A DNA stretch of 64,000 nt from assembly GCA_028289135.1 (NCBI GenBank), contig JAQGGW010000003.1:2015-66014 (forward strand). Reading direction: 5' to 3'. This DNA comes from Candidatus Saccharimonadota bacterium. GTDB lineage: Bacteria; Patescibacteriota; Saccharimonadia; Saccharimonadales; JACDBH01. Below are positions 131-46,124 of this stretch, one piece after another. The notes beneath the pieces were generated by a model. That model was not told the origin of the DNA. It did no database searches and saw only the letters and a program-made list of their open reading frames with translations. Both the position numbers and the translations under genes were made by a program. Position 1 is the stretch's first letter. The number at the start of each line of letters is the position of its first letter.

Positions 131-207
131 GTACCCGTAGCTCAGCTGGATAGAGCGCTAGGCTTCGAACCTAGAGGCCGGGGATTCGAGTTCCTCCGGG
201 TACACCA
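131..207 (+). tRNA. tRNA-Arg (anticodon TCG)
   Basis: Cloverleaf read by eye: acceptor GTACCCG/CGGGTAC, anticodon loop CTTCGAA, T-loop TTCGAGT, encoded CCA. Confidence 0.9.
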
Positions 208-3516: not shown

Positions 3517-4584
3517 ATGACTAAAAATGCAATCAAACGCGCTATACTAATGCTTATGGATATGCAGGAAAACGTCTCTCTAAGCGGTTATTCGACCATG
3601 CGTCTTGGTGGCAAATCTGACTATTTTGTTGAGGCTAGGACAAAAGAAGACCTTGTAGCTGCGGCGGAGTGGGCAGACGAGCATGCTGTGCCGCTTCGGG
3701 TAATTGGCGGCGGCAGTAACATCATCTGGCGCGACGAGGGCTTTAAAGGTCTTTTGGTGGCAAACAAAATCCCCGGCTTTGAGAAAATAAATGAAGACCA
3801 CATAAGCGTAACCTACACATTTGGAGCAGGCGAAAACTGGGATGAAACAGTCAGAAAAACAGCTGAAATGGGGCTTTATGGGATTGAATGTTTGTCGGCG
3901 ATCCCAGGAACCGTTGGTGCAACCCCCGTCCAGAACGTTGGAGCCTATGGCCAGGACATTTCGCAGACAATGGTGAGCCTTGAAGCTTATGATTGCGTTG
4001 AAAAAAAGTTTGTAACACTCCACGGCGGTGACTGTGATTTTGGATACCGGACTTCACGGTTTAAAGGCGCGGACAATGGCCGCTTTCTAATTAGCTCAGT
4101 CGCCCTAAAACTACAAAAAAATCCGCCGGCGGCATTGTGGTCGAATTCGCTTAAGGACTACCTTGAAACTCATAATATTACCGAGCGCGATCCAATGACT
4201 TTTCGTAATGCTATTATTGCCATCCGCGCCGCAAAGCTGCCCGACCCTGCAGTTGTTGCCAATACCGGATCATTTTTTGCGAACCCGATAATATCAGACG
4301 CTGAGCTTGCCAGGATCTGGGTTAATTTCCCCGACATGCCGGCCTGGGAAGTTGGCAAGGACAGTCAAAAACTATCGGCTGGCTGGATGATTGAAGCCGC
4401 TGGGTTTAAAGGATATAGCGATCCAGAAACTGGAATGGCCACCTGGAAAAACCATGCGCTCGTGATCGTGAACGAACATGCCGAAAGCACCGGAGACCTT
4501 ATGAAGTTCCAACAAAAAATCAAAGACAAAGTCGAAGAGCTGTTTGGGGTTAGGCTAGAACAAGAACCGGAGCTTTTGCCTTAG
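3517..4584 (+). CDS. murB: UDP-N-acetylenolpyruvoylglucosamine reductase
   Basis: YSTMRLGG and VIGGGSNI FAD-binding motifs and a MurB-like C-terminal domain. Start may be the internal MLMDMQ instead. Confidence 0.88.
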   Translation: MTKNAIKRAILMLMDMQENVSLSGYSTMRLGGKSDYFVEARTKEDLVAAAEWADEHAVPLRVIGGGSNIIWRDEGFKGLLVANKIPGFEKINEDHISVTYTFGAGENWDETVRKTAEMGLYGIECLSAIPGTVGATPVQNVGAYGQDISQTMVSLEAYDCVEKKFVTLHGGDCDFGYRTSRFKGADNGRFLISSVALKLQKNPPAALWSNSLKDYLETHNITERDPMTFRNAIIAIRAAKLPDPAVVANTGSFFANPIISDAELARIWVNFPDMPAWEVGKDSQKLSAGWMIEAAGFKGYSDPETGMATWKNHALVIVNEHAESTGDLMKFQQKIKDKVEELFGVRLEQEPELLP

Positions 4585-10413: not shown

Positions 10414-10488
10414 GCGGGATTCGTATAGCGGCTAATATATAAGTTTTCCAAACTTAGGAGGAGAGTTCGATTCTCTCATCCCGCACCA
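10414..10488 (+). tRNA. tRNA-Gly (anticodon TCC)
   Basis: Acceptor GCGGGAT/ATCCCGC, anticodon loop TTTCCAA, T-loop TTCGATT, encoded CCA. Confidence 0.9.
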
Positions 10489-10494
10489 AGTCAC

Positions 10495-10571
10495 GCACCC
10501 GTAGCTCAGCTGGATAGAGCAATGGGCTTCTATCCCACAGGTCGGGGGTTCGAATCCCTCCGGGTGTACCA
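10495..10571 (+). tRNA. tRNA-Arg (anticodon TCT)
   Basis: Acceptor GCACCCG/CGGGTGT (G1-U72), anticodon loop CTTCTAT, T-arm GGGGG-TTCGAAT-CCCTC, encoded CCA. Confidence 0.88.
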
Positions 10572-13848: not shown

Positions 13849-14343
13849 ATGCCAATAAACAGCTGCCAATTCTGTAAAGCAAACTTCTATGCAAAACCAA
13901 GTCATATAAAAAAGGGCTGGGGCAAATATTGCTCTAAATTGTGCCAGTCTTCGTCAAAAAAGACAGGAAATATGATAGACTGTTTTATTTGCAAAAAGCC
14001 GACATATAAAAATCTAAGAGATCAGCAAAGGTCAGTTAGCAGCAAATTTTTCTGTTCAAAATCTTGCCAAACCATTTGGAGAAACACTCAGTATTCTGGA
14101 GATAAACACAGTAACTGGACGGGAGGTAAGTCTTCGTATAGAGTTGCACTACTACGCAGCAGCTTAAAACAAGCTTGCGGCAAGTGCACGATTACTGACA
14201 AGCGCGTTCTCGCTGTTCATCATAAAGATAAAAATAGATGGAATAATGACCTTTCTAATCTGATGTGGTTATGTCATAATTGTCACTATCTTGTTCACCA
14301 CGATAAGAGAGAGGCTGAAGGCTTTTTGGTGCCTGTAGCTTAG
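13849..14343 (+). CDS. HNH endonuclease with duplicated CxxC zinc-ribbon modules
   Basis: Motifs HHKDKNRWNN...NLMWLCHNCHYLVHH (HNH) plus CQFC...CSKLC and CFIC...CSKSC. ATG chosen at 13849, whereas the track ORF starts at a GTG at 13789. Visibly AT-rich. Confidence 0.75.
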   Translation: MPINSCQFCKANFYAKPSHIKKGWGKYCSKLCQSSSKKTGNMIDCFICKKPTYKNLRDQQRSVSSKFFCSKSCQTIWRNTQYSGDKHSNWTGGKSSYRVALLRSSLKQACGKCTITDKRVLAVHHKDKNRWNNDLSNLMWLCHNCHYLVHHDKREAEGFLVPVA

Positions 14344-14405
14344 CGGTTTAAAGCGTCGGTTTGTGGTACCGAAGATCGAGGGTTCAAATCCCTTTAGGCA
14401 CCCCA
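14328..14405 (+). tRNA. tRNA-His (anticodon GTG) with encoded G-1
   Basis: An extra 5' G opposite discriminator C73, acceptor GTGCCTG/TAGGCAC, anticodon loop TTGTGGT, encoded CCA. The 5' end overlaps the last 16 nt of the HNH ORF. Confidence 0.88.
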
Positions 14406-18671: not shown

Positions 18672-18748
18672 CGGGGTGTGGCGCAGCTGGCTAGCGCGGG
18701 CGGTTTGGGACCGTCAGGTCGTAGGTTCGAATCCTATCACCCCGACCA
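18672..18748 (+). tRNA. tRNA-Pro (anticodon TGG)
   Basis: Acceptor CGGGGTG/CACCCCG (C1-G72), anticodon loop TTTGGGA, T-loop TTCGAAT, encoded CCA. Confidence 0.9.
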
Positions 18749-19067: not shown

Positions 19068-20651
19068 ATGAGTACTAAAGCTAAAAAATCTACAACGCGG
19101 TCAACGCACGCTAAAACCATCGCCGCCATCAAGCGCAACCGCACGCGGCGCCTGGCTTCTTTGATTACCCGGTCGTATTATCTCCATAAGAAAAAACAAG
19201 ACGAACAGCTTTATGGCCTGATATGTGAAGAGTTTATGTCCCTTGGCGGCGTCTATGTAAAGTTTCTCCAGGGCGTCCTGCTCCGCTCGCAAATTATGCG
19301 CAAATGGCACAATCCAGAAAAGCTGAATATTTTTGAAAACCTCGACAGCGAACCGATCGACATTATGAAGTTTTTGCAAAACGAACTGCCAAAAGATAAG
19401 CTTTCACAAATTGCCATGATCCAGCCTATGCCTTTTGCCGCCGGAAGTTTTGGCCAGGTTTATTACGGCCAGCTGCGGACCGGCGAACCAATTATCGTAA
19501 AGGTGCTTAGGCCAATGGTTCGCGAGCTGCTTAAATATGACCTAAAGCTGCTCACAACGTTTTCAAAAACCTTTATGGTTAAGCTTAATAAAAACATGAA
19601 CATGCAGATTGGTGACGCGCTTAAAGACTTTAGTGCTGCGACCCTGCGCGAGACCGACTACAAACACGAAGCCGAGTTTGCTAACGAGCTGCATGAAGCC
19701 TACAAAGGCCACAACACGATTGTTATCCCAAAGACTTATCTAGATTTATGCACAAACAATATTATCGTCCAGGATTATGTTGATGGCATTTCGGTGGCGC
19801 AAATTATACGCATGCACGAACAAGGTGTTGACCCGGCCGTATACGTCAAAGAACAGCTTGGCTCCGACCTGATCACGCAGCTGCAAAATTTGGGGTATGA
19901 ATCAGTAATGTCAGTATTTAGGCTTCGCCGCATCCAGGGCGACCCGCATCCTGGCAACATACGCTTGATGCGCAACAACAAAGTCGGCATGATTGATTTT
20001 GGCATTAGCGCCCAGGCGCCAGAGGACAAAAGCGGATTGTTCGGCCTGTTCGAAAGTTATGACAAAGTCTTTAAAGGGTCTCAAACAGCAATTGGCCTGT
20101 TCGAACACAGCATGCGGTTTTTTGTGAGCGACCTATACCGTTCATTAAAACGCCTCGGCGACTACATCGGCAAAAACGACGACCGTGATTATGTAAAAGA
20201 CGTAAGTAAAATTGCCGGTGACGTTTTCCAGCAGGCAACCGGCAGCGACATTATTAATGCCGATTTTAAAAACGACTCAAGCGTGCTGGTGATTATTAAC
20301 AAAATGGTCAACAAGGGCAACCGTTTTGGCCTGGTCATGAAGCTTGAGGCCACTGAAATTTTGCGTGCCACCCAGACGTTTACGTCTATGCTCGGCAGCC
20401 TAGGCCTCTACGCAAAAGTTATGCCTTCGGTAATAGATCATTCCGTCAAAGACATCCGCCGGCTATACCCCGAAGTTATCCAAGACAGCAAAGAAACCGT
20501 TAGTATTGGCGACGCGATCGAAACTGTGGCCAACTGGCTAGAGCGTGTTGCCGCCCGCGACCCGATGCTTTTTAGGCAGCTTTCTGATAAAATTCGTTTT
20601 AATAAGGTTGTCCCCGCAGTGGAACCAGAAGAGGAAGTTCAAACATCATGA
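19068..20651 (+). CDS. ABC1/UbiB/AarF-family atypical protein kinase
   Basis: AAGSFGQVYYG...IIVKVLRP (nucleotide-binding loop plus Lys) and GDPHPGNIRL (catalytic loop). 527 aa. Confidence 0.85.
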   Translation: MSTKAKKSTTRSTHAKTIAAIKRNRTRRLASLITRSYYLHKKKQDEQLYGLICEEFMSLGGVYVKFLQGVLLRSQIMRKWHNPEKLNIFENLDSEPIDIMKFLQNELPKDKLSQIAMIQPMPFAAGSFGQVYYGQLRTGEPIIVKVLRPMVRELLKYDLKLLTTFSKTFMVKLNKNMNMQIGDALKDFSAATLRETDYKHEAEFANELHEAYKGHNTIVIPKTYLDLCTNNIIVQDYVDGISVAQIIRMHEQGVDPAVYVKEQLGSDLITQLQNLGYESVMSVFRLRRIQGDPHPGNIRLMRNNKVGMIDFGISAQAPEDKSGLFGLFESYDKVFKGSQTAIGLFEHSMRFFVSDLYRSLKRLGDYIGKNDDRDYVKDVSKIAGDVFQQATGSDIINADFKNDSSVLVIINKMVNKGNRFGLVMKLEATEILRATQTFTSMLGSLGLYAKVMPSVIDHSVKDIRRLYPEVIQDSKETVSIGDAIETVANWLERVAARDPMLFRQLSDKIRFNKVVPAVEPEEEVQTS

Positions 20652-20844: not shown

Positions 20845-20963
20845 GCCGACCTAAGCATATTCCATCTGAATGACACTCTCTACGGGGAGCCTAAGGGCTC
20901 GCCCGTGGCGTTTGGCTGGCCGAAGCGGCCACAGTCACCCAGACGAAATATGCTTAGGTCGGC
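20845..20963. other. 119-nt rod-like hairpin in a convergent intergenic region
   Basis: A perfect 17-bp closing stem GCCGACCTAAGCATATT / AATATGCTTAGGTCGGC. Inner pairings are CTG..TGAC/GTCA..CAG, GAGCC-TAAG-GGCTC and GGCCG-AAG-CGGCC. Confidence 0.6.
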
Positions 20964-21012: not shown

Positions 21013-21810
21013 CTAAATAATAATTCGGATTTGTTCGATTGATTTTGCGCGGTTTGTTTCGGGGTTGGTTTCGACTAAAACGGCATTAAACTGCATGGCG
21101 CCTTCTGTTTCCAGCACGTTACGGGTTTGGATCCCGTCGCGCCAGCGGGGAAGTACGCTTTCAAACTTTACTCCCAAGGAACTGTCCAAAGAGCCTACCA
21201 TGCCGACATCGGTTATGTGAGCCGTGCCGCCTTTTAACACCCGCGCATCGGCCGTTGGCACATGCCAATGATCGCCAATAACGGCCGTAACGCGGCCGTC
21301 CAGATAGTGGCCAATTACCACTTTTTCGCTGCTAAAATCACCATGAAAATTAACAATAACAGTGGTAAAGTCGCTTATGCTTAACATGTTAAGTATGCCG
21401 TCAACAGAGGCAAGGGGATTGTCGGTTGGCTTGTCAGCGTCTTTGCCTACAATACTGCCCAGCAGGCTGATGAGCAACACTTTGCCCTGGCTAGTTTCGG
21501 CAATCTTGTAGCGCTTCCCTGCTGTGCCGTCTGGATAGTTTGCCGGTCGTGTTACGGCGTGTTCCTCGCCCTCAAGCAGCTCATGGGTTTCGTCCAAGTG
21601 CATTGTCCAGTTGCCGCCGGTGAAGGCCTGCACCCCTGCCCTTTTGAGCCTTTCGTAATCAGCAACAGTTAGGCCTTTGCCTTCCGAAACATTCTCGGCC
21701 TGGGCAATAACAAAATCTACATCTTTTTCATTAACAAGTCCGGGCAAAACTTTTTCAACTGTTTCGATCCCTGCTTCGCCCATTACGTCGCCAATATATA
21801 AAATTCTCAT
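21013..21810 (-). CDS. ymdB: YmdB-type metallophosphoesterase (2',3'-cyclic-nucleotide phosphodiesterase family)
   Basis: MRILYIGDVMG...VIAQAENVSEGKGLT, GGNWTMH and NFHGD motifs. 265 aa. Confidence 0.85.
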   Translation of the reverse strand: MRILYIGDVMGEAGIETVEKVLPGLVNEKDVDFVIAQAENVSEGKGLTVADYERLKRAGVQAFTGGNWTMHLDETHELLEGEEHAVTRPANYPDGTAGKRYKIAETSQGKVLLISLLGSIVGKDADKPTDNPLASVDGILNMLSISDFTTVIVNFHGDFSSEKVVIGHYLDGRVTAVIGDHWHVPTADARVLKGGTAHITDVGMVGSLDSSLGVKFESVLPRWRDGIQTRNVLETEGAMQFNAVLVETNPETNRAKSIEQIRIII

Positions 21811-30451: not shown

Positions 30452-32266
30452 ATGCGTATTTCTGATGCACTTGTGAAGGAGTTGTTGCTCGAGGGTAAAA
30501 AAATTACTGCTGAGCAAATTAAAGCCGCCCACGATACGGCTGGTAACGAAAAGCTATCCCTGCAAGAAGCGGTTTTAAAAGCAAATCTGATCAGTGAAAA
30601 AGACTTGACCAAGCTTTACGCCGCCAAAATCGATGTTCCTTATATAGAACTCAATTCCAAAGAAATTAAGCGCGAGCTTCTAAAGCTTATCCCCGAACGT
30701 ATTGCCCGGCAGTATAATGTGGTGCTCTACGGTGTTGAGGCCGACGGCTCCAAGCTACTAGCCATGGATGACCCGGATGATATCCAAGCAGTTAACTTTT
30801 TGAAAAAAGAGCTCGGCAACGAGATCAAAGTCTCGATGGCCACCAAACAGGCTATTTTGCAGTCGCTTGACCAGTACCGAGGCAATATAAGTAGTGAGCT
30901 TACCAAAGTTATTTCGCCAGATGAAATTACCGACGAAGAAGACGAAGAAGTCAGCGAAGAAGACGTTGCCGAGGATTCACCGATTGCCCAAACCGTTAAT
31001 TTGCTTATTGAATACGCCGTAAAAGCTGGGGCATCGGACGTTCATATTGAACCGCGCGAAGGCCACGTTTTGGTGCGCTACCGGGTGGACGGCATTTTAA
31101 AAGAAGCCAACAAGCTGCCCAAAAAAGTCATGAATGCCCTGGTGAGCCGTATCAAAATCTTGAGCAACCTCAAAATTGACGAAAAGCGCGCGCCCCAGGA
31201 CGGCCGTTTTAAGATTGCCGCCAATGGCCAGGTCTATGCGCTGCGTGTCTCAACGCTGCCGATTGTAGACGGCGAAAAGGTGGTTATGCGTATTTTGAAC
31301 GAATCCAGCAAAGCTTTAACGCTTGAGGAGCTGGGATACTGGGGCTATTCGCTAAATGTCGTTAATAAAGCCATCGTCCAGCCGCACGGTATGATCCTGG
31401 TCACGGGGCCGACCGGTTCTGGCAAATCAACTAGCCTGTTTAGCGTGCTGTCGCTGCTAAATAACCCGAGCGTTAACATCTCAACAGTCGAAGACCCGGT
31501 TGAATACCGCATCCCGGGAACCAACCAAACCCAGGTTAACCCTGTAGCTGGCATGACGTTCGTAAACGGCCTAAGAGCCCTCCTCCGCCAAGACCCGAAC
31601 GTCATCATGGTTGGGGAAATCCGTGACGGCGAAACGGCTGACCTTGCTGTCCAGGCTGCCTTAACAGGACACCTTGTGTTTAGCACGCTTCACACCAACA
31701 ATGCCGCCACATGTCTGCCGCGTTTGCTCGACATGGGCATTGAAGCGTTTTTGATTGCCAGCACTGTCCGCTGTGTAGTGGGCCAGCGCCTTGTCCGGCG
31801 CCTCTGTGTGGACTGCCGCGAGAGTATCCAGCCTGATGCCGTTATATTGAAGCGGCTTCAAGAAGCATTCCACCTAGACGAAGCTGGCGGTATGGGGCAA
31901 ATCCATGAGCTTGAGAAGCAAGCGCTGGAAGGCGGGATTGGTAAAACAAACACCTCCACCGTTAGTAAAGCCAGCACGGCCGAGCTAAGTACCACCGAAA
32001 ACAGCATTAACCGGATCTGGAAAGCCCATGATGGAGGCTGCGACGCCTGCAGCCACACCGGCTACAGAGGCCGGATGGGCATTTATGAAGTGCTCGGCAA
32101 CACCCAGACTATCCAAAAACTGATTGTCGGCAACGCAACCAGCGATGTTATACAGGACGAATCCATAAAAGAAGGCATGATTACCATGCAGGTCGATGGG
32201 TTTATTAAGGCTTTGCGCGGGCAGACTTCGATTGAAGAAATTTTAAGAGTAACGAGTGAACGCTAA
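30452..32266 (+). CDS. pilB: type IV pilus assembly ATPase PilB (GspE family)
   Basis: N-terminal T2SSE_N-like repeats, Walker A GPTGSGKST, VGEIRD, and a tetracysteine CVDC...CDAC. 604 aa. Confidence 0.92.
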   Translation: MRISDALVKELLLEGKKITAEQIKAAHDTAGNEKLSLQEAVLKANLISEKDLTKLYAAKIDVPYIELNSKEIKRELLKLIPERIARQYNVVLYGVEADGSKLLAMDDPDDIQAVNFLKKELGNEIKVSMATKQAILQSLDQYRGNISSELTKVISPDEITDEEDEEVSEEDVAEDSPIAQTVNLLIEYAVKAGASDVHIEPREGHVLVRYRVDGILKEANKLPKKVMNALVSRIKILSNLKIDEKRAPQDGRFKIAANGQVYALRVSTLPIVDGEKVVMRILNESSKALTLEELGYWGYSLNVVNKAIVQPHGMILVTGPTGSGKSTSLFSVLSLLNNPSVNISTVEDPVEYRIPGTNQTQVNPVAGMTFVNGLRALLRQDPNVIMVGEIRDGETADLAVQAALTGHLVFSTLHTNNAATCLPRLLDMGIEAFLIASTVRCVVGQRLVRRLCVDCRESIQPDAVILKRLQEAFHLDEAGGMGQIHELEKQALEGGIGKTNTSTVSKASTAELSTTENSINRIWKAHDGGCDACSHTGYRGRMGIYEVLGNTQTIQKLIVGNATSDVIQDESIKEGMITMQVDGFIKALRGQTSIEEILRVTSER

Positions 32267-32456
32267 TTATGACCTATTATTTTTGCCCATTTCTTTGTTG
32301 CCAGCTCCAGTCCGAGATCGTGGCTTTTTCGCAGTGTAGCGGGCTTAGCCCGCTAGCAGGCGAAAAAGAGACCATGTCAGTCGTCGTATTATCAGATACG
32401 CCTCCTTTGCGGGCTTCGCAGGCACCTCGAACTGGACTAAAAATAATAAGTCATAA
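32267..32456. repeat. 190-nt structured element with 18-bp terminal inverted repeats between pilB and pilC
   Basis: TTATGACCTATTATTTTT (32267-32284) versus AAAAATAATAAGTCATAA (32439-32456), 17 of 18 complementary. Nested pairs are CCAGTCCGAG/CTCGAACTGG and TGGCTTTTTCGC/GCGAAAAAGAGACCA, with an apical palindrome TAGCGGGCTTAGCCCGCTA. Confidence 0.6.
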
Positions 32457-32475
32457 AAAGGCTAGGTCATTTTAA

Positions 32476-33702
32476 ATGCCTAAATTTACATATGCTGCAG
32501 TTAATAAAGCCGGTAAATCGATAACCGGAGCTGGCGAGTCTACCAGCCGCGACACCATGGCCGACACGCTTATCAAGCAAGGCCTGCGCCCGGTTACTAT
32601 AAAAGTTGCAAGTGAAAAAAAGGGTTTTAGCTCAAAATTAAAAAACTTTGGAAACAAAGTAAAACTTAAGGACTTGGTTATCTTTAGCCGCCAGATGTCC
32701 ACCATGATCTCGGCTGGCGTGCCGCTGACACGTGCGCTGTCGACCATGCAAACCCAGAGCACCAACAAATACTTCCAGACTGTCATTGCCGGCATCTCCC
32801 ACGACGTCGAAGGCGGTATGTCGCTCGGGGAAGCTTTTGGCAAATATCCCACCGTTTTTTCTGAGATTTATATCAACATGATCAAAGCCGGTGAAGCCGG
32901 CGGTATTTTGGATGACATTATGAAACGTCTGGCCACCCAGGTGGAACAAGACTCAAGCATGCGCAAAAAAGTTAAAGGCGCCATGACCTACCCGATCGTC
33001 ATCCTTACCGTCACTGTGATCGCATTCTTTGGAATCACGATGTTTGTCCTACCAAAAATCGGCAAAATTATCCTAGACCTCGGCGGCCCGAACGCCAAAC
33101 TGCCAATCTACACTGTCGCGATGCTTAACATTAGTGCTTTTATGCAGAAAAAAGGCGTCTTTATTTTTGTATTTTTGGTCATTTTTGTTTTCTTTGGGAT
33201 GAAATATATCAAAACGCCAAAGGGCAAATATAAGTTCCACTATGTTTTGCTAAAGATCCCTGTTCTTAAAGACATTATTATCAAAATTGCGGTTGCCCGT
33301 TTTGCCCGCACTTTTGCTTCGCTCATGACAGCTGGCGTTACAGTACTCGATGCGCTGGAAGTTACTGGCGGCGCCGTGGGCAATAAAGTCATCCAAAAAG
33401 AGCTGATTGAAGCCGCCAAAGAGGTAAAAAACGGTAAGCAGTTAAGTGAGCCGCTGAGCAAAAGCAAGAACTTCCCGCCGATTGTTTCACAGATGCTTGC
33501 CATCGGTGAAGAGACGGGACAGACCGATACAATTCTTGTGCGCGTCGCCGACTTCTACGAAGAAGAGGTTGCAACCGTCATCGACAGCCTGGCGTCTATT
33601 ATTGAACCGATCATGATTATCATTTTGGGCGCCGGCGTCGGGCTGATTGCTGCCAGCGTTATGGGCCCAATCGCCTCCCTGTCTAAAAACATTGGTGGAT
33701 AA
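32476..33702 (+). CDS. pilC: type IV pilus platform protein PilC (GspF family)
   Basis: Two T2SSF repeats (FSRQMSTMISAGVPL... and FARTFASLMTAGVTVL...) and 3 TM segments. 408 aa. Confidence 0.92.
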   Translation: MPKFTYAAVNKAGKSITGAGESTSRDTMADTLIKQGLRPVTIKVASEKKGFSSKLKNFGNKVKLKDLVIFSRQMSTMISAGVPLTRALSTMQTQSTNKYFQTVIAGISHDVEGGMSLGEAFGKYPTVFSEIYINMIKAGEAGGILDDIMKRLATQVEQDSSMRKKVKGAMTYPIVILTVTVIAFFGITMFVLPKIGKIILDLGGPNAKLPIYTVAMLNISAFMQKKGVFIFVFLVIFVFFGMKYIKTPKGKYKFHYVLLKIPVLKDIIIKIAVARFARTFASLMTAGVTVLDALEVTGGAVGNKVIQKELIEAAKEVKNGKQLSEPLSKSKNFPPIVSQMLAIGEETGQTDTILVRVADFYEEEVATVIDSLASIIEPIMIIILGAGVGLIAASVMGPIASLSKNIGG

Positions 33703-33729
33703 ATCTCACCGCTTTTTATCTTTCAAAAA

Positions 33730-33755
33730 GATCCGGGTTTATCCCGGTCTTTTTG
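33730..33755 (+). terminator. putative terminator after pilC
   Basis: CCGGG-TTTAT-CCCGG followed by TCTTTTT. Confidence 0.5.
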
Positions 33756-33850
33756 CCGAAACGATAGAGACTGTAACTCAGTCAAAAAAGATATAGAATT
33801 AAGAAGTACTTGACCCTGGGGTCCCCATGAAACCTGTTTCATGGGGTATG

Positions 33851-33895
33851 GTTATGGGTCCGATCGCCTCCCTCTCCAAGAACATTGGTGGATAA
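33851..33895 (+). pseudogene. orphan second copy of the pilC 3' end (last 14 codons plus stop)
   Basis: 40 of 45 nt are identical to 33658-33702, and all 5 differences fall in codon third positions. Both copies encode VMGPIASLSKNIGG*. Confidence 0.7.
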
Positions 33896-33920
33896 AAAAA
33901 GGCTTTCCCAGAGAAAACTG

Positions 33921-34036: not shown

Positions 34037-34504
34037 ATGATTTCACTAAAAAATAAGCAATCTGGTTTTACAATCGTAGAACTCTTGATCGTAATTGTCG
34101 TTATCGGTATTTTGGCCGGTCTTGTCATTACGACCTTCAGCGGTATTCAACAAAAAGCTCGCGACACTGAACGCGAAACAGATATTAAGGCGCTACACGG
34201 CCAAATTGAAGCTTTCTGGGCACAGAAGGGTTATTACCCATCTTTGACAGACATGAACACGGCTTCATTCGTATCGACTAACCTCAAGGGCTTGGACGCA
34301 GGTGCGTTTAAGGATCCTAAAGGAAGCGTAAGCACTCTAGCAACTACGGCTGCTGCAAGCGTTTACTCATACGCCGTTACAAACACAGCTGGTACCACCT
34401 GCGAAGCAGATGACACCACTTGTTCCAAGTACGTTTTGACTGCTACCCTGGAAGGTACACTCAACGGTTCTGGCACGTTCGTCAAGAACAGCTTGAACAG
34501 CTAA
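34037..34504 (+). CDS. type IV (major) pilin, copy 1
   Basis: Class III signal MISLKNKQSG|FTIVELLIVIVVIGILAGLV with Glu+5. C-terminal Cys pair CEADDTTC. Has its own terminator. Confidence 0.9.
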   Translation: MISLKNKQSGFTIVELLIVIVVIGILAGLVITTFSGIQQKARDTERETDIKALHGQIEAFWAQKGYYPSLTDMNTASFVSTNLKGLDAGAFKDPKGSVSTLATTAAASVYSYAVTNTAGTTCEADDTTCSKYVLTATLEGTLNGSGTFVKNSLNS

Positions 34505-34584: not shown

Positions 34585-35058
34585 ATGATTAATCTCAACA
34601 AAAAGCAAAGCGGTTTCACGATTGTGGAACTTTTGATCGTCATCGTTGTTATCGGTATTTTGGCAGGACTTGTCATCACAACCTTTAGCGGCATCCAGCA
34701 AAAAGCTCGCGACACTGAACGCGAAACAGATATTAAGGCATTGCATGGTCAAATTGAAGCATTCTGGGCACAGAAGGGTTATTACCCATCTTTGACAGAC
34801 ATGAACAGCCAGGCTGCTGGCGGGTTCGTAGCTACAAACCTCAAGGGCTTGGACGCGGACTCATTTAAAGATCCTAAGGGCTCTTCGAACGCATTAGTCA
34901 CAGCACCGGCTGCAAATGCATACGCATATGCTGTTACTAACGCTGCTGGTACCACCTGCGAAGCAGATGACACCACATGCGCAAAGTACGTTTTGACTGC
35001 TACCTTGGAAGGTACGCTCAACGGATCTAGCACATTTGTTAAAAACAGCTTAAACTAA
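34585..35058 (+). CDS. type IV pilin, copy 2
   Basis: MINLNKKQSG|FTIVELLIV. Residues 7-74 are identical to copy 1, the middle is variable, and the C-terminus is conserved. Confidence 0.88.
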   Translation: MINLNKKQSGFTIVELLIVIVVIGILAGLVITTFSGIQQKARDTERETDIKALHGQIEAFWAQKGYYPSLTDMNSQAAGGFVATNLKGLDADSFKDPKGSSNALVTAPAANAYAYAVTNAAGTTCEADDTTCAKYVLTATLEGTLNGSSTFVKNSLN

Positions 35059-37851: not shown

Positions 37852-37883
37852 ATTCTATCTCCCGCATTAATGCATTGGTGAGC

Positions 37884-38044
37884 TAGGGATTACTTACAGT
37901 AGTGCAGTTTGTTCGAAAAGCGAGTACCGAAGCGGAGATGTACGGAATGGTATATTGAGCATCGGAACACACTCTACCCCACAAAGCAGGCTTTGCGGGG
38001 ACCCTTAGCTTTTCGGACAAAATGCGCACTGTATGTAAGCCCTA
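37884..38044. repeat. long imperfect hairpin element, copy 2 (homologous to 6402-6523)
   Basis: The arm starting at 37884 (TAGGGATTACTTACAGTAGTGCAGTTTGTTCGAAAAG) pairs with CTTTTCGGACAAAATGCGCACTGTATGTAAGCCCTA ending at 38044. Inner hairpin CCCCACAAAG-CAGG-CTTTGCGGGG. Fills a convergent intergenic gap. Confidence 0.6.
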
Positions 38045-38047
38045 CTT

Positions 38048-45851: not shown

Positions 45852-45885
45852 AACCCCTGTATTTCGTATATGGCTAGTCCATTTG

Positions 45886-46008
45886 CGGGCCCGTAGCTCA
45901 GCTGGTTAGAGTGAGAACTGCCAGCGGCAGTTCGGAAACGAATCTTCCGATGAAAACTTGTTTTCAATCGCGAAGTTCGGGGGTCGCGGAACGTGACCCT
46001 GCCTTTTA
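45886..46008 (+). pseudogene. 5' half of tRNA-Lys(TTT) interrupted by an 86-nt structured insertion
   Basis: 45886-45910 matches the first 25 nt of the intact tRNA-Lys, and 45997-46008 (CCTGCCTTTTAA) matches its anticodon stem 5' strand plus loop. Between them lie 4 hairpins. No 3' half follows. Confidence 0.7.
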
Positions 46009-46047: not shown

Positions 46048-46124
46048 TGGGCCCGTAGCTCAGCTGGTTAGAGCACCTGCCTTTTAAGCAGGGTGTCGTG
46101 AGTTCAAGTCTCACCGGGCCCTCC
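46048..46124 (+). tRNA. tRNA-Lys (anticodon TTT)
   Basis: Acceptor GGGCCCG/CGGGCCC, anticodon loop CTTTTAA, T-loop TTCAAGT, encoded CCA. Confidence 0.92.

Follow-up and report, generated by a model that had tools for sequence, protein, structure and literature searches.

The 64,000-nt stretch analyzed here (hereafter the window) belongs to a Candidatus Saccharimonadota bacterium (contig JAQGGW010000003.1 of assembly GCA_028289135.1) and carries a type IV pilus operon in which the genes pilB and pilC are separated by a gap of 209 nt (32267–32475), most of which is taken up by an inverted-repeat element. On the forward strand, pilB (30452–32266, 604 aa) encodes the pilus assembly ATPase, recognized by the Pfam domain T2SSE (1.8e-126) together with MshEN, and ends in the open reading frame (ORF) listing with a TAA stop codon at 32264–32266, while pilC (32476–33702, T2SSF, 1.2e-59) encodes an intact platform protein of 408 aa, a length that is also found in relatives. 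The operon is preceded by recA on the other strand and continues after pilC with two pilin genes and pilM. Homologues of the ATPase in Candidatus Saccharibacteria carry the names PilB or GspE, and this PilB matches a protein of a Candidatus Saccharibacteria metagenome-assembled genome at 100% identity, with the nearest relatives after it at 93%. Genomes of Saccharibacteria measure about 1 Mb and hold very few mobile elements. Their type IV pili are the structures on which attachment to bacterial hosts depends (PMC9894109, PMC11623550).

The inserted element and its empty site

From the letters of this DNA alone, an earlier sequence-only reading had held that pilB and pilC are normally tightly linked, and this view is borne out by 13 related pilB–pilC loci from 10 distinct relatives (L002–L009, L133, and L209–L213), whose PilB sequences show 85–93% amino acid identity and 75–80% DNA identity. 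The spacers between the two genes range from −1 to 9 nt in this set: stop and start codons overlap as TAATG in eight loci, lie 1–2 nt apart in four, and are separated by 9 nt in L133. Spacers of −1 to 10 nt were likewise found in farther Saccharibacteria-like loci (PilB identity of about 61–72%). None of the 13 related loci has the element, and the 209-nt gap is restricted to the lineage of the window; because these loci are all empty, the block between pilB and pilC is a lineage-specific insertion.

The comparison of spacers, which the sequence-only reading had put forward as a check, thus brought out junctions free of the insertion, and one of them proved to be an exact empty site. In L133, the junction consists of TAA, TTATTTTAA, and ATGCCTAAATTT in succession, where the window has TAA, TTAT-GACC...GGTC-ATTTTAA, and ATGCCTAAATTT. 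The nine spacer bases of L133 equal, without a single change, the left spacer remnant TTAT (32267–32270, forward strand) joined to the right spacer remnant TTTAA (32471–32475, forward strand). The flanks match L133 over 4 nt on the left and 7 nt on the right with an overlap of 2 nt (AT), which gives a net insertion of 200 nt whose borders, 32269/71 to 32468/70, are fixed by the empty site to within 2 nt. Two parses of this junction are available, namely an insert of 198 nt (GACC...GGTC) accompanied by a 2-nt AT duplication, or an insert of 200 nt (TGACC...GGTCA) without duplication; counted with both AT dinucleotides, the inserted foldback element spans 202 nt (32269–32470). Its DNA opens with (AT)GACCTATTATTTTT and closes with AAAAAGGCTAGGTC(AT). 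A 2-nt direct repeat fits the junctions as TT[AT]{...}[AT]TTTAA, in which case the AT at 32269–32270 would be the left copy of a target duplication, but AT is self-complementary and may equally extend the inverted repeat, in which case it would form the first two bases of the latter.

L133 may represent either the ancestral empty site or the product of a precise excision, and both possibilities make the block a discrete mobile unit; the tree of these lineages is star-like and unresolved at about 75–80% DNA identity. Furthermore, pilB, the gap, and pilC are 100% identical in a separate assembly (a Logan contig from run SRR13312994), so that an error of a single assembly cannot account for the inserted block. 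An insertion into the pilB–pilC junction is strongly supported by the related loci, the exact empty site, and the inverted repeats at the borders.

The insertion has 16-nt inverted repeats, ATGACCTA... and ...TAGGTCAT, at its physical ends. According to the repeat finder, the left terminal repeat, ATGACCTATTATTTTT, occupies 32269–32284 on the forward strand and faces two copies on the reverse strand, that is, an inner, subterminal right repeat, AAAAATAATAAGTCAT, at 32439–32454 (15 of 16 positions complementary to the left repeat), and an outer, true terminal right repeat, AAAAAGGCTAGGTCAT, at 32455–32470 (13 of 16). The outer and inner right repeats abut directly and form a 16-nt tandem, the outer one being a third copy of the terminal motif that the sequence-only reading had not picked up. 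Between the left and the right repeats lie further complementary segments: two subterminal arms of 11 nt, at 32306–32316 and 32426–32436, pair at 10 of 11 positions (91%), and the center consists of an imperfect palindrome with 32-nt arms that are 75% complementary (32314–32378). Within this central palindrome, a perfect hairpin, TAGCGGGC-TTA-GCCCGCTA, makes up the 19-nt palindrome TAGCGGGCTTAGCCCGCTA at 32337–32355, with a run of T on its 5′ side and a run of A on its 3′ side. The whole element is an imperfect palindrome with unequal arms of 79 and 110 nt.

Every feature that the sequence-only reading had described at this place was recovered by the repeat finder, including the gap of 209 nt, the nested segments, the 19-nt palindrome, and a pair of 18-nt arms at 32267–32284 and 32439–32456 that are complementary at 17 of 18 positions. 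Among 1,000 dinucleotide shuffles of the gap, none contained an inverted repeat of 18 nt with no more than one mismatch. The end of the element, which had been set at 32456, has to be revised, as the empty site places the true right border at 32468–32470, 14 nt farther; the right arm noted at the time contains the inner repeat and corresponds to the inner copy of the tandem.

Predicted RNA fold, open frame, and start signals

In line with the proposal that the gap can fold into a multi-level rod, the forward-strand RNA of the gap is predicted to form a rod with a minimum free energy (MFE) of −76 kcal/mol (z −4.7), from which a single side hairpin, CGUAUU-AUCA-GAUACG (32385–32400, forward strand), branches off in both the MFE and the centroid structures. 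The reverse-strand RNA reaches −80.9 kcal/mol (z −5.3), and none of 200 shuffles gave a fold as stable as that of the native gap. Ensemble prediction joins the left arm to the inner right repeat with a probability of about 1, as a basal stem of 18 bp with one bulge. The pilC AUG is drawn into a small hairpin with the outer repeat, and the predicted probability of this start codon being unpaired is 0.07–0.28.

No known structured RNA was recognized in this rod. At gathering score, Rfam 15 returned only tRNAs from the window and no family over the element, and searches over the element at E values up to 10 gave noise only, with a best score of 17 bits against a threshold of 249. The 6S RNA, retron msr/msd, attC sites, and ribozymes were all rejected as candidates, given that no model matched, that no reverse transcriptase was found, and that the element is absent in relatives. 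This absence, together with the lack of any Rfam family and of a terminator-like hairpin, leaves a conserved regulatory RNA unsupported. The attenuation element that had been among the RNA-level options raised from the letters fares no better: a scan for a hairpin followed by a U-run found no terminator-like site on either strand of 32267–32475, and an intrinsic terminator or attenuator is ruled out, the T-run and A-run around the central hairpin lying on its 5′ and 3′ sides, respectively, with no U-run after it. As no terminator lies between pilB and pilC, the pilBC mRNA would include the element, whose cotranscribed hairpin may have side effects at the RNA level. Regarding promoters, no site in the element reached the scan threshold on the forward strand; by eye, AATAAT at 32442–47 matches a −10 box at five of six positions and is combined with a poor −35, and weak matches (9/12) occur on the reverse strand in both AT-rich ends.

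Only one frame is open through the element, and it runs across the entire insertion as an ORF of 68 codons in the ORF listing (32269–32475, forward strand). The left repeat opens with the ATG of this ORF, 2 nt past the pilB stop, and the TAA of the ORF abuts the pilC ATG. The frame stays open in 2.8–3.2% of shuffles, a post hoc observation of modest significance. The predicted 68-aa product has no Pfam match; compared with 5.8 billion protein clusters, it shared too few words for scoring and no homologue was found, and a HMMER search of 1.84 billion representatives returned no match. It is also missing from the gene calls of the Logan contig. The lack of homologues agrees with the earlier view of the ORF as an artefact of the element, with the reservation that the frame spans the element exactly.

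The outer repeat further holds two motifs resembling a Shine–Dalgarno (SD) sequence, AAAGG and AGG, which precede the start codon of pilC by 14 and 9 nt, respectively. The predicted duplex with the anti-SD sequence at pilC amounts to −7.3 kcal/mol, against −3.85 kcal/mol as the median over 40 genes in the window and −1.9 kcal/mol for random sites.

Origin of the element and its rival explanations

We consider, with a probability of roughly 0.6, that the element goes back to a single event in which a transposase inserted a non-autonomous foldback element, either a miniature inverted-repeat transposable element (MITE) or the relic of one. In a working definition, MITEs measure 50–800 bp, have terminal inverted repeats (TIRs) of at least 10–15 bp and target-site duplications (TSDs) of 2–10 bp, and encode no transposase (PMC11602168). 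A genome may contain as few as one copy, and ORFs that lack homologues are frequently found in MITEs (PMC10969869). By comparison with the empty site, the element is 198–202 nt long, its 16-nt TIRs stand at the ends of the insertion (13/16 for the outer and 15/16 for the inner right repeat), its sole ORF of 68 aa is without Pfam match or homologue, and the site is polymorphic, being filled in the lineage of the window only and empty in 13 of 13 related loci. Of the MITE that the sequence-only reading had envisaged in the operon, the insertion and the anatomy thus stand, through the empty site and the TIRs at its borders; the further copies or the parent insertion sequence (IS) that would complete the picture were not found.

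Several observations weigh against such an origin. Neither a second copy nor an autonomous parent was encountered in the window, in about 1.08 Mb of pilus loci from relatives, or in exact scans of metagenomes and IMG/VR; no transposase family can be assigned to the element; the AT “duplication,” being self-complementary, is indistinguishable from an extension of the inverted repeat; and with one sequence only, selection on the rod is neither shown nor refuted. The search for more copies by means of the terminal repeats, which had been suggested from the letters for the full genome, was negative in the DNA covered, as follows. Within the window, 16- and 18-mers of these repeats with up to 3–4 mismatches recovered only the three copies of the element itself, and blastn found none. 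In the loci of relatives, no copy was detected by blastn, nhmmer, or a fuzzy scan for repeat pairs. Exact two-arm patterns gave 0 matches in JGI metagenomes and IMG/VR, bearing in mind that exact patterns overlook diverged copies, and the central palindrome gave 0 matches in IMG/VR. Distant blastn searches of phage and plasmid collections returned nothing beyond one 30-nt chance match. As to the contigs of GTDB genomes, the 18-nt arm TTATGACYTATTATTTTT had at least 119 single-arm matches, which fall in unrelated phyla and were discarded as chance; among the matches listed, local blastn never extended the similarity past 20–32 nt.

No transposase lies near the element in the window. A duplication of 2 nt is typical of IS630/Tc1-mariner (TA) and of IS30 (2–3 bp), which offers a lead only. 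An element derived from IS200/IS605 (PATE) or a REPIN was rejected. Such elements lack TIRs and have a separate subterminal hairpin on either side; they insert 3′ of a fixed tetranucleotide, leave no duplication, and occur in genomes that encode a Y1 transposase or RAYT. The ends of the present element, in contrast, are complementary to each other rather than folded into local hairpins, and the window holds no Y1 gene; the junction can be parsed without a duplication, but this is not diagnostic for the class. Separately, a Y1_Tnp gene (IS200/IS605- or RAYT-like) was observed between ruvA and ruvC in two relatives (L211:15735–16364 and L212:19693–20193), and nothing similar to these transposases is found within the window.

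If the element is a MITE or its relic, a single mobilization by the transposase of an IS outside the observed DNA, acting in trans, would account for its presence, and the transcribed element would fold as a long rod within the pilBC mRNA. The stop/start overlap in relatives implies a translational coupling of pilC to pilB, which the insertion would have abolished, and two routes could explain why this was tolerated. On the one hand, the AAAGG/AGG motifs brought in by the outer terminal repeat, 9–14 nt before the pilC AUG, could recruit ribosomes in the manner of an SD sequence; on the other hand, the one open frame could allow ribosomes leaving pilB to restart 2 nt on, read 68 codons through the rod, and stop at the pilC AUG. 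If the ratio of PilB to PilC were affected, be it through RNase III cutting the 18-bp basal stem or through a 3′ hairpin stabilizing the pilB segment, this would then be a by-product of the insertion.

Known palindromic elements offer several points of comparison. The Correia elements, which are MITEs of Neisseria, similarly comprise about 100–200 bp, are bounded by TIRs and non-coding, are often flanked by a 2-nt duplication (only a possible one here) and located beside or within transcription units, and form a long hairpin when cotranscribed, as is predicted from sequence for the present element (PMC10969869). In Correia elements, RNase III cuts this hairpin at the TIRs, and the ends can hold promoter or ribosome-binding-site-like signals (PMC10969869); by analogy, an RNase III-type cleavage of the 18-bp stem described here is possible. 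However, Correia elements occur in more than 100 copies per genome, duplicate TA, have 26-bp TIRs of unrelated sequence, and contain an IHF site, when the present element has one known copy and a possible duplication of AT. Likewise, the ERIC/IRU elements of enterobacteria are imperfect palindromes of 100–200 nt that reside in transcribed intergenic regions, form an RNA rod, and can in this form change the stability of flanking cistrons (PMC10969869), but they are multi-copy (30–700), conserved across genera, and without sequence similarity to the single known copy studied here. Rickettsia palindromic elements (RPEs) and other MITE insertions that preserve an ORF likewise survive in compact, reduced genomes by virtue of a reading frame that stays open across the palindrome (PMC10969869); unlike our element, whose separate 68-codon cistron is only conjecturally translated, RPEs sit inside genes and are translated within the host protein. 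A single copy is also possible for MITEs of the MITEAba12 type, which number 1–22 per genome (PMC10969869). For the MITEAba12 type, however, a family, a TSD of 9 bp, and a candidate parent IS can be named, in contrast to the present element. In another category, intercistronic stem-loops and REP sequences stabilize upstream mRNA segments, as in the case of malE–malF in Escherichia coli. The resemblance lies in a stable hairpin between two cotranscribed genes that have to deliver their products in unequal quantities, and the difference in that the malE–malF type is conserved and experimentally shown, when the rod between pilB and pilC is lineage specific and predicted only.

This last comparison bears on a doubtful yet not negligible alternative, namely that the rod, whatever its origin, is now maintained as an exapted intercistronic RNA device setting the PilB:PilC ratio, whether as a target of RNase III or another endonuclease, as a protective hairpin at the 3′ end of the pilB segment, or as a gate on the access to the pilC start. 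The great stability of the fold on both strands, the near-certain pairing of the basal stem, and the mostly sequestered pilC AUG of the predicted ensemble are in keeping with such a device, as are the RNase III cleavage of Correia elements and the altered mRNA decay caused by ERIC elements (PMC10969869). Moreover, five of seven gene-free pilB–pilC spacers of at least 45 nt in farther lineages are strongly structured, with z values of −3.3 to −5.4 (L144:4235–4312, L153:5862–5972, L172:5042–5105, L173:3671–3816, and L207:5046–5188), and a 444-nt spacer at L178:2346–2789, of unchecked gene content, reaches z −8.2; several of these structured spacers have inverted repeats near both ends, such as GTTAGAAATTTT...AAAATTTCTAAC in L153. 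In the window itself, 5 of 31 intergenic spacers have z values below −3. However, any inverted-repeat insertion folds without selection, all close relatives lack the element and make pili with overlapping pilB and pilC, the single available sequence makes a covariation test impossible, and neither an Rfam match nor a terminator supports a regulatory role. The structured spacers elsewhere may also just reflect the usual enlargement of intra-operon junctions by palindromic mobile DNA, which is their simplest reading. An even bolder version, in which the rod is kept for rebuilding or retuning the pilB–pilC coupling and the hairpin spacers of L144, L153, L172, L173, L207, and L178 constitute an independent, recurrent device for the ratio of ATPase to platform protein, appears improbable to us; it would involve a relay in which ribosomes that finish pilB at its UAA start again on the AUG of the terminal repeat 2 nt downstream, melt the rod as they travel over the 68-codon ORF, and end at the UAA abutting the pilC AUG. 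As a separate observation, sequence related to the L173 spacer is found downstream of pilB in L190 and L194.

The remaining explanations concern the origin and nature of the block itself. A template-switch or snap-back palindrome, or a capture of foreign DNA mediated by microhomology with AT as the junction microhomology, would dispense with a transposon and would fit the single copy throughout the DNA searched, the self-complementary junction overlap of just 2 nt, and the imperfectly palindromic nature of the entire element. It is nevertheless an unlikely origin, considering that the inverted repeats coincide exactly with the borders of the insertion, that the tandem 16-nt terminal motif at the right end resembles repeated binding sites and not a snap-back product, that the arms are unequal with a center only 75% complementary, and that neither the window nor the loci of relatives contain a donor sequence. 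That the 68-aa ORF is a genuine small gene encoding a functional protein between pilB and pilC is highly improbable: its frame does stay open over the whole gap, from 2 nt past the pilB stop to the pilC start, but two exhaustive protein searches and Pfam revealed no homologue or family, the gene caller passed it over, relatives lack it, and its sequence is dictated by the inverted-repeat structure. Finally, a chimeric or mis-joined stretch in the metagenome-assembled genome could be suspected from an element seen in one organism only, all the more so as palindromes can confuse assemblers, yet the identical junction in the separately produced Logan contig, the integrity of both flanking genes, and the clean match of the borders to the empty site make this extremely improbable.

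With regard to a MITE-like insertion, we found no description of MITEs in the literature on Saccharibacteria. The clean pair of filled and empty sites in an essential pilus operon indicates that small foldback transposons do reach the genomes of these bacteria and that the loss of a stop/start overlap through an insertion is tolerable. Were the relay ORF or the RNA-processing idea true, the locus would provide a compact natural case of a selfish insertion rewiring the expression ratio of two components of one machine; as the evidence stands, it is one more MITE-like insertion whose function is undemonstrated.

Other hairpins, repeats, and genes of the window

Apart from the pilB–pilC junction, the window contains other structured spacers. 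One of them is a 119-nt intergenic hairpin at 20845–20963 (forward strand), with 30-nt arms that are 87% complementary, an MFE of −74.3 kcal/mol, and z −8.65, located between the convergent ORFs 19068–20651 (forward strand) and 21013–21810 (reverse strand). It has no Rfam match, and nothing similar was found in the fetched loci of relatives; it could be a novel structured RNA or a second foldback element. A hairpin motif of the form CCCC-N6-CAGG-N7-GGGGACC is present in three copies, at 1682–1708 and 37977–38003 on the forward strand and at 33820–33846 on the reverse strand, when 0.14 copies are expected by chance. The stems of these copies differ by compensatory changes, and they could form a small REP-like or terminator family. 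The spacer 37852–38047, which includes one of them, folds with z −8.4.

Downstream of pilC, the last 46 nt of this gene including the stop (33658–33703) are repeated 193 nt farther on, at 33851–33896, with 89% identity. The two copies bracket a 147-nt block (33704–33850) with a bidirectional terminator-like hairpin at 33733–47, and this block is partly common to the relative L002/L003, where it also lies downstream of pilC. The spacer between pilC and the pilin genes measures 334 nt in the window against 125–160 nt in other relatives. The pilin genes that follow, at 34037–34504 and 34585–35058, are arranged in tandem, encode the N_methyl motif, and are about 82–86% identical at the DNA level; the 80-nt spacer between them folds with z −5.0. 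Among relatives whose contigs cover this region, two pilin genes are present in L209 and one in all others.

A TATAAT-like box is found within about 6–12 nt of the start codons of several genes that lack an SD sequence, for example at the ATGs at 3517, 6642, 26837 (reverse strand), 38680 (reverse strand), 60252 (reverse strand), and 62609 (reverse strand), a sequence pattern suggesting that leaderless mRNAs or mRNAs with a very short leader are frequent in this genome. Seven tRNA genes are carried by the window (131–204, 1603–1676, 10414–10568, 14329–14402, 18672–18745, and 46049–46122). For the tRNA at 46049, the 5′ part recurs 162 nt upstream, at 45881–45911, as a 31-nt copy with 94% identity that may be a tRNA fragment or the remnant of an attachment site.

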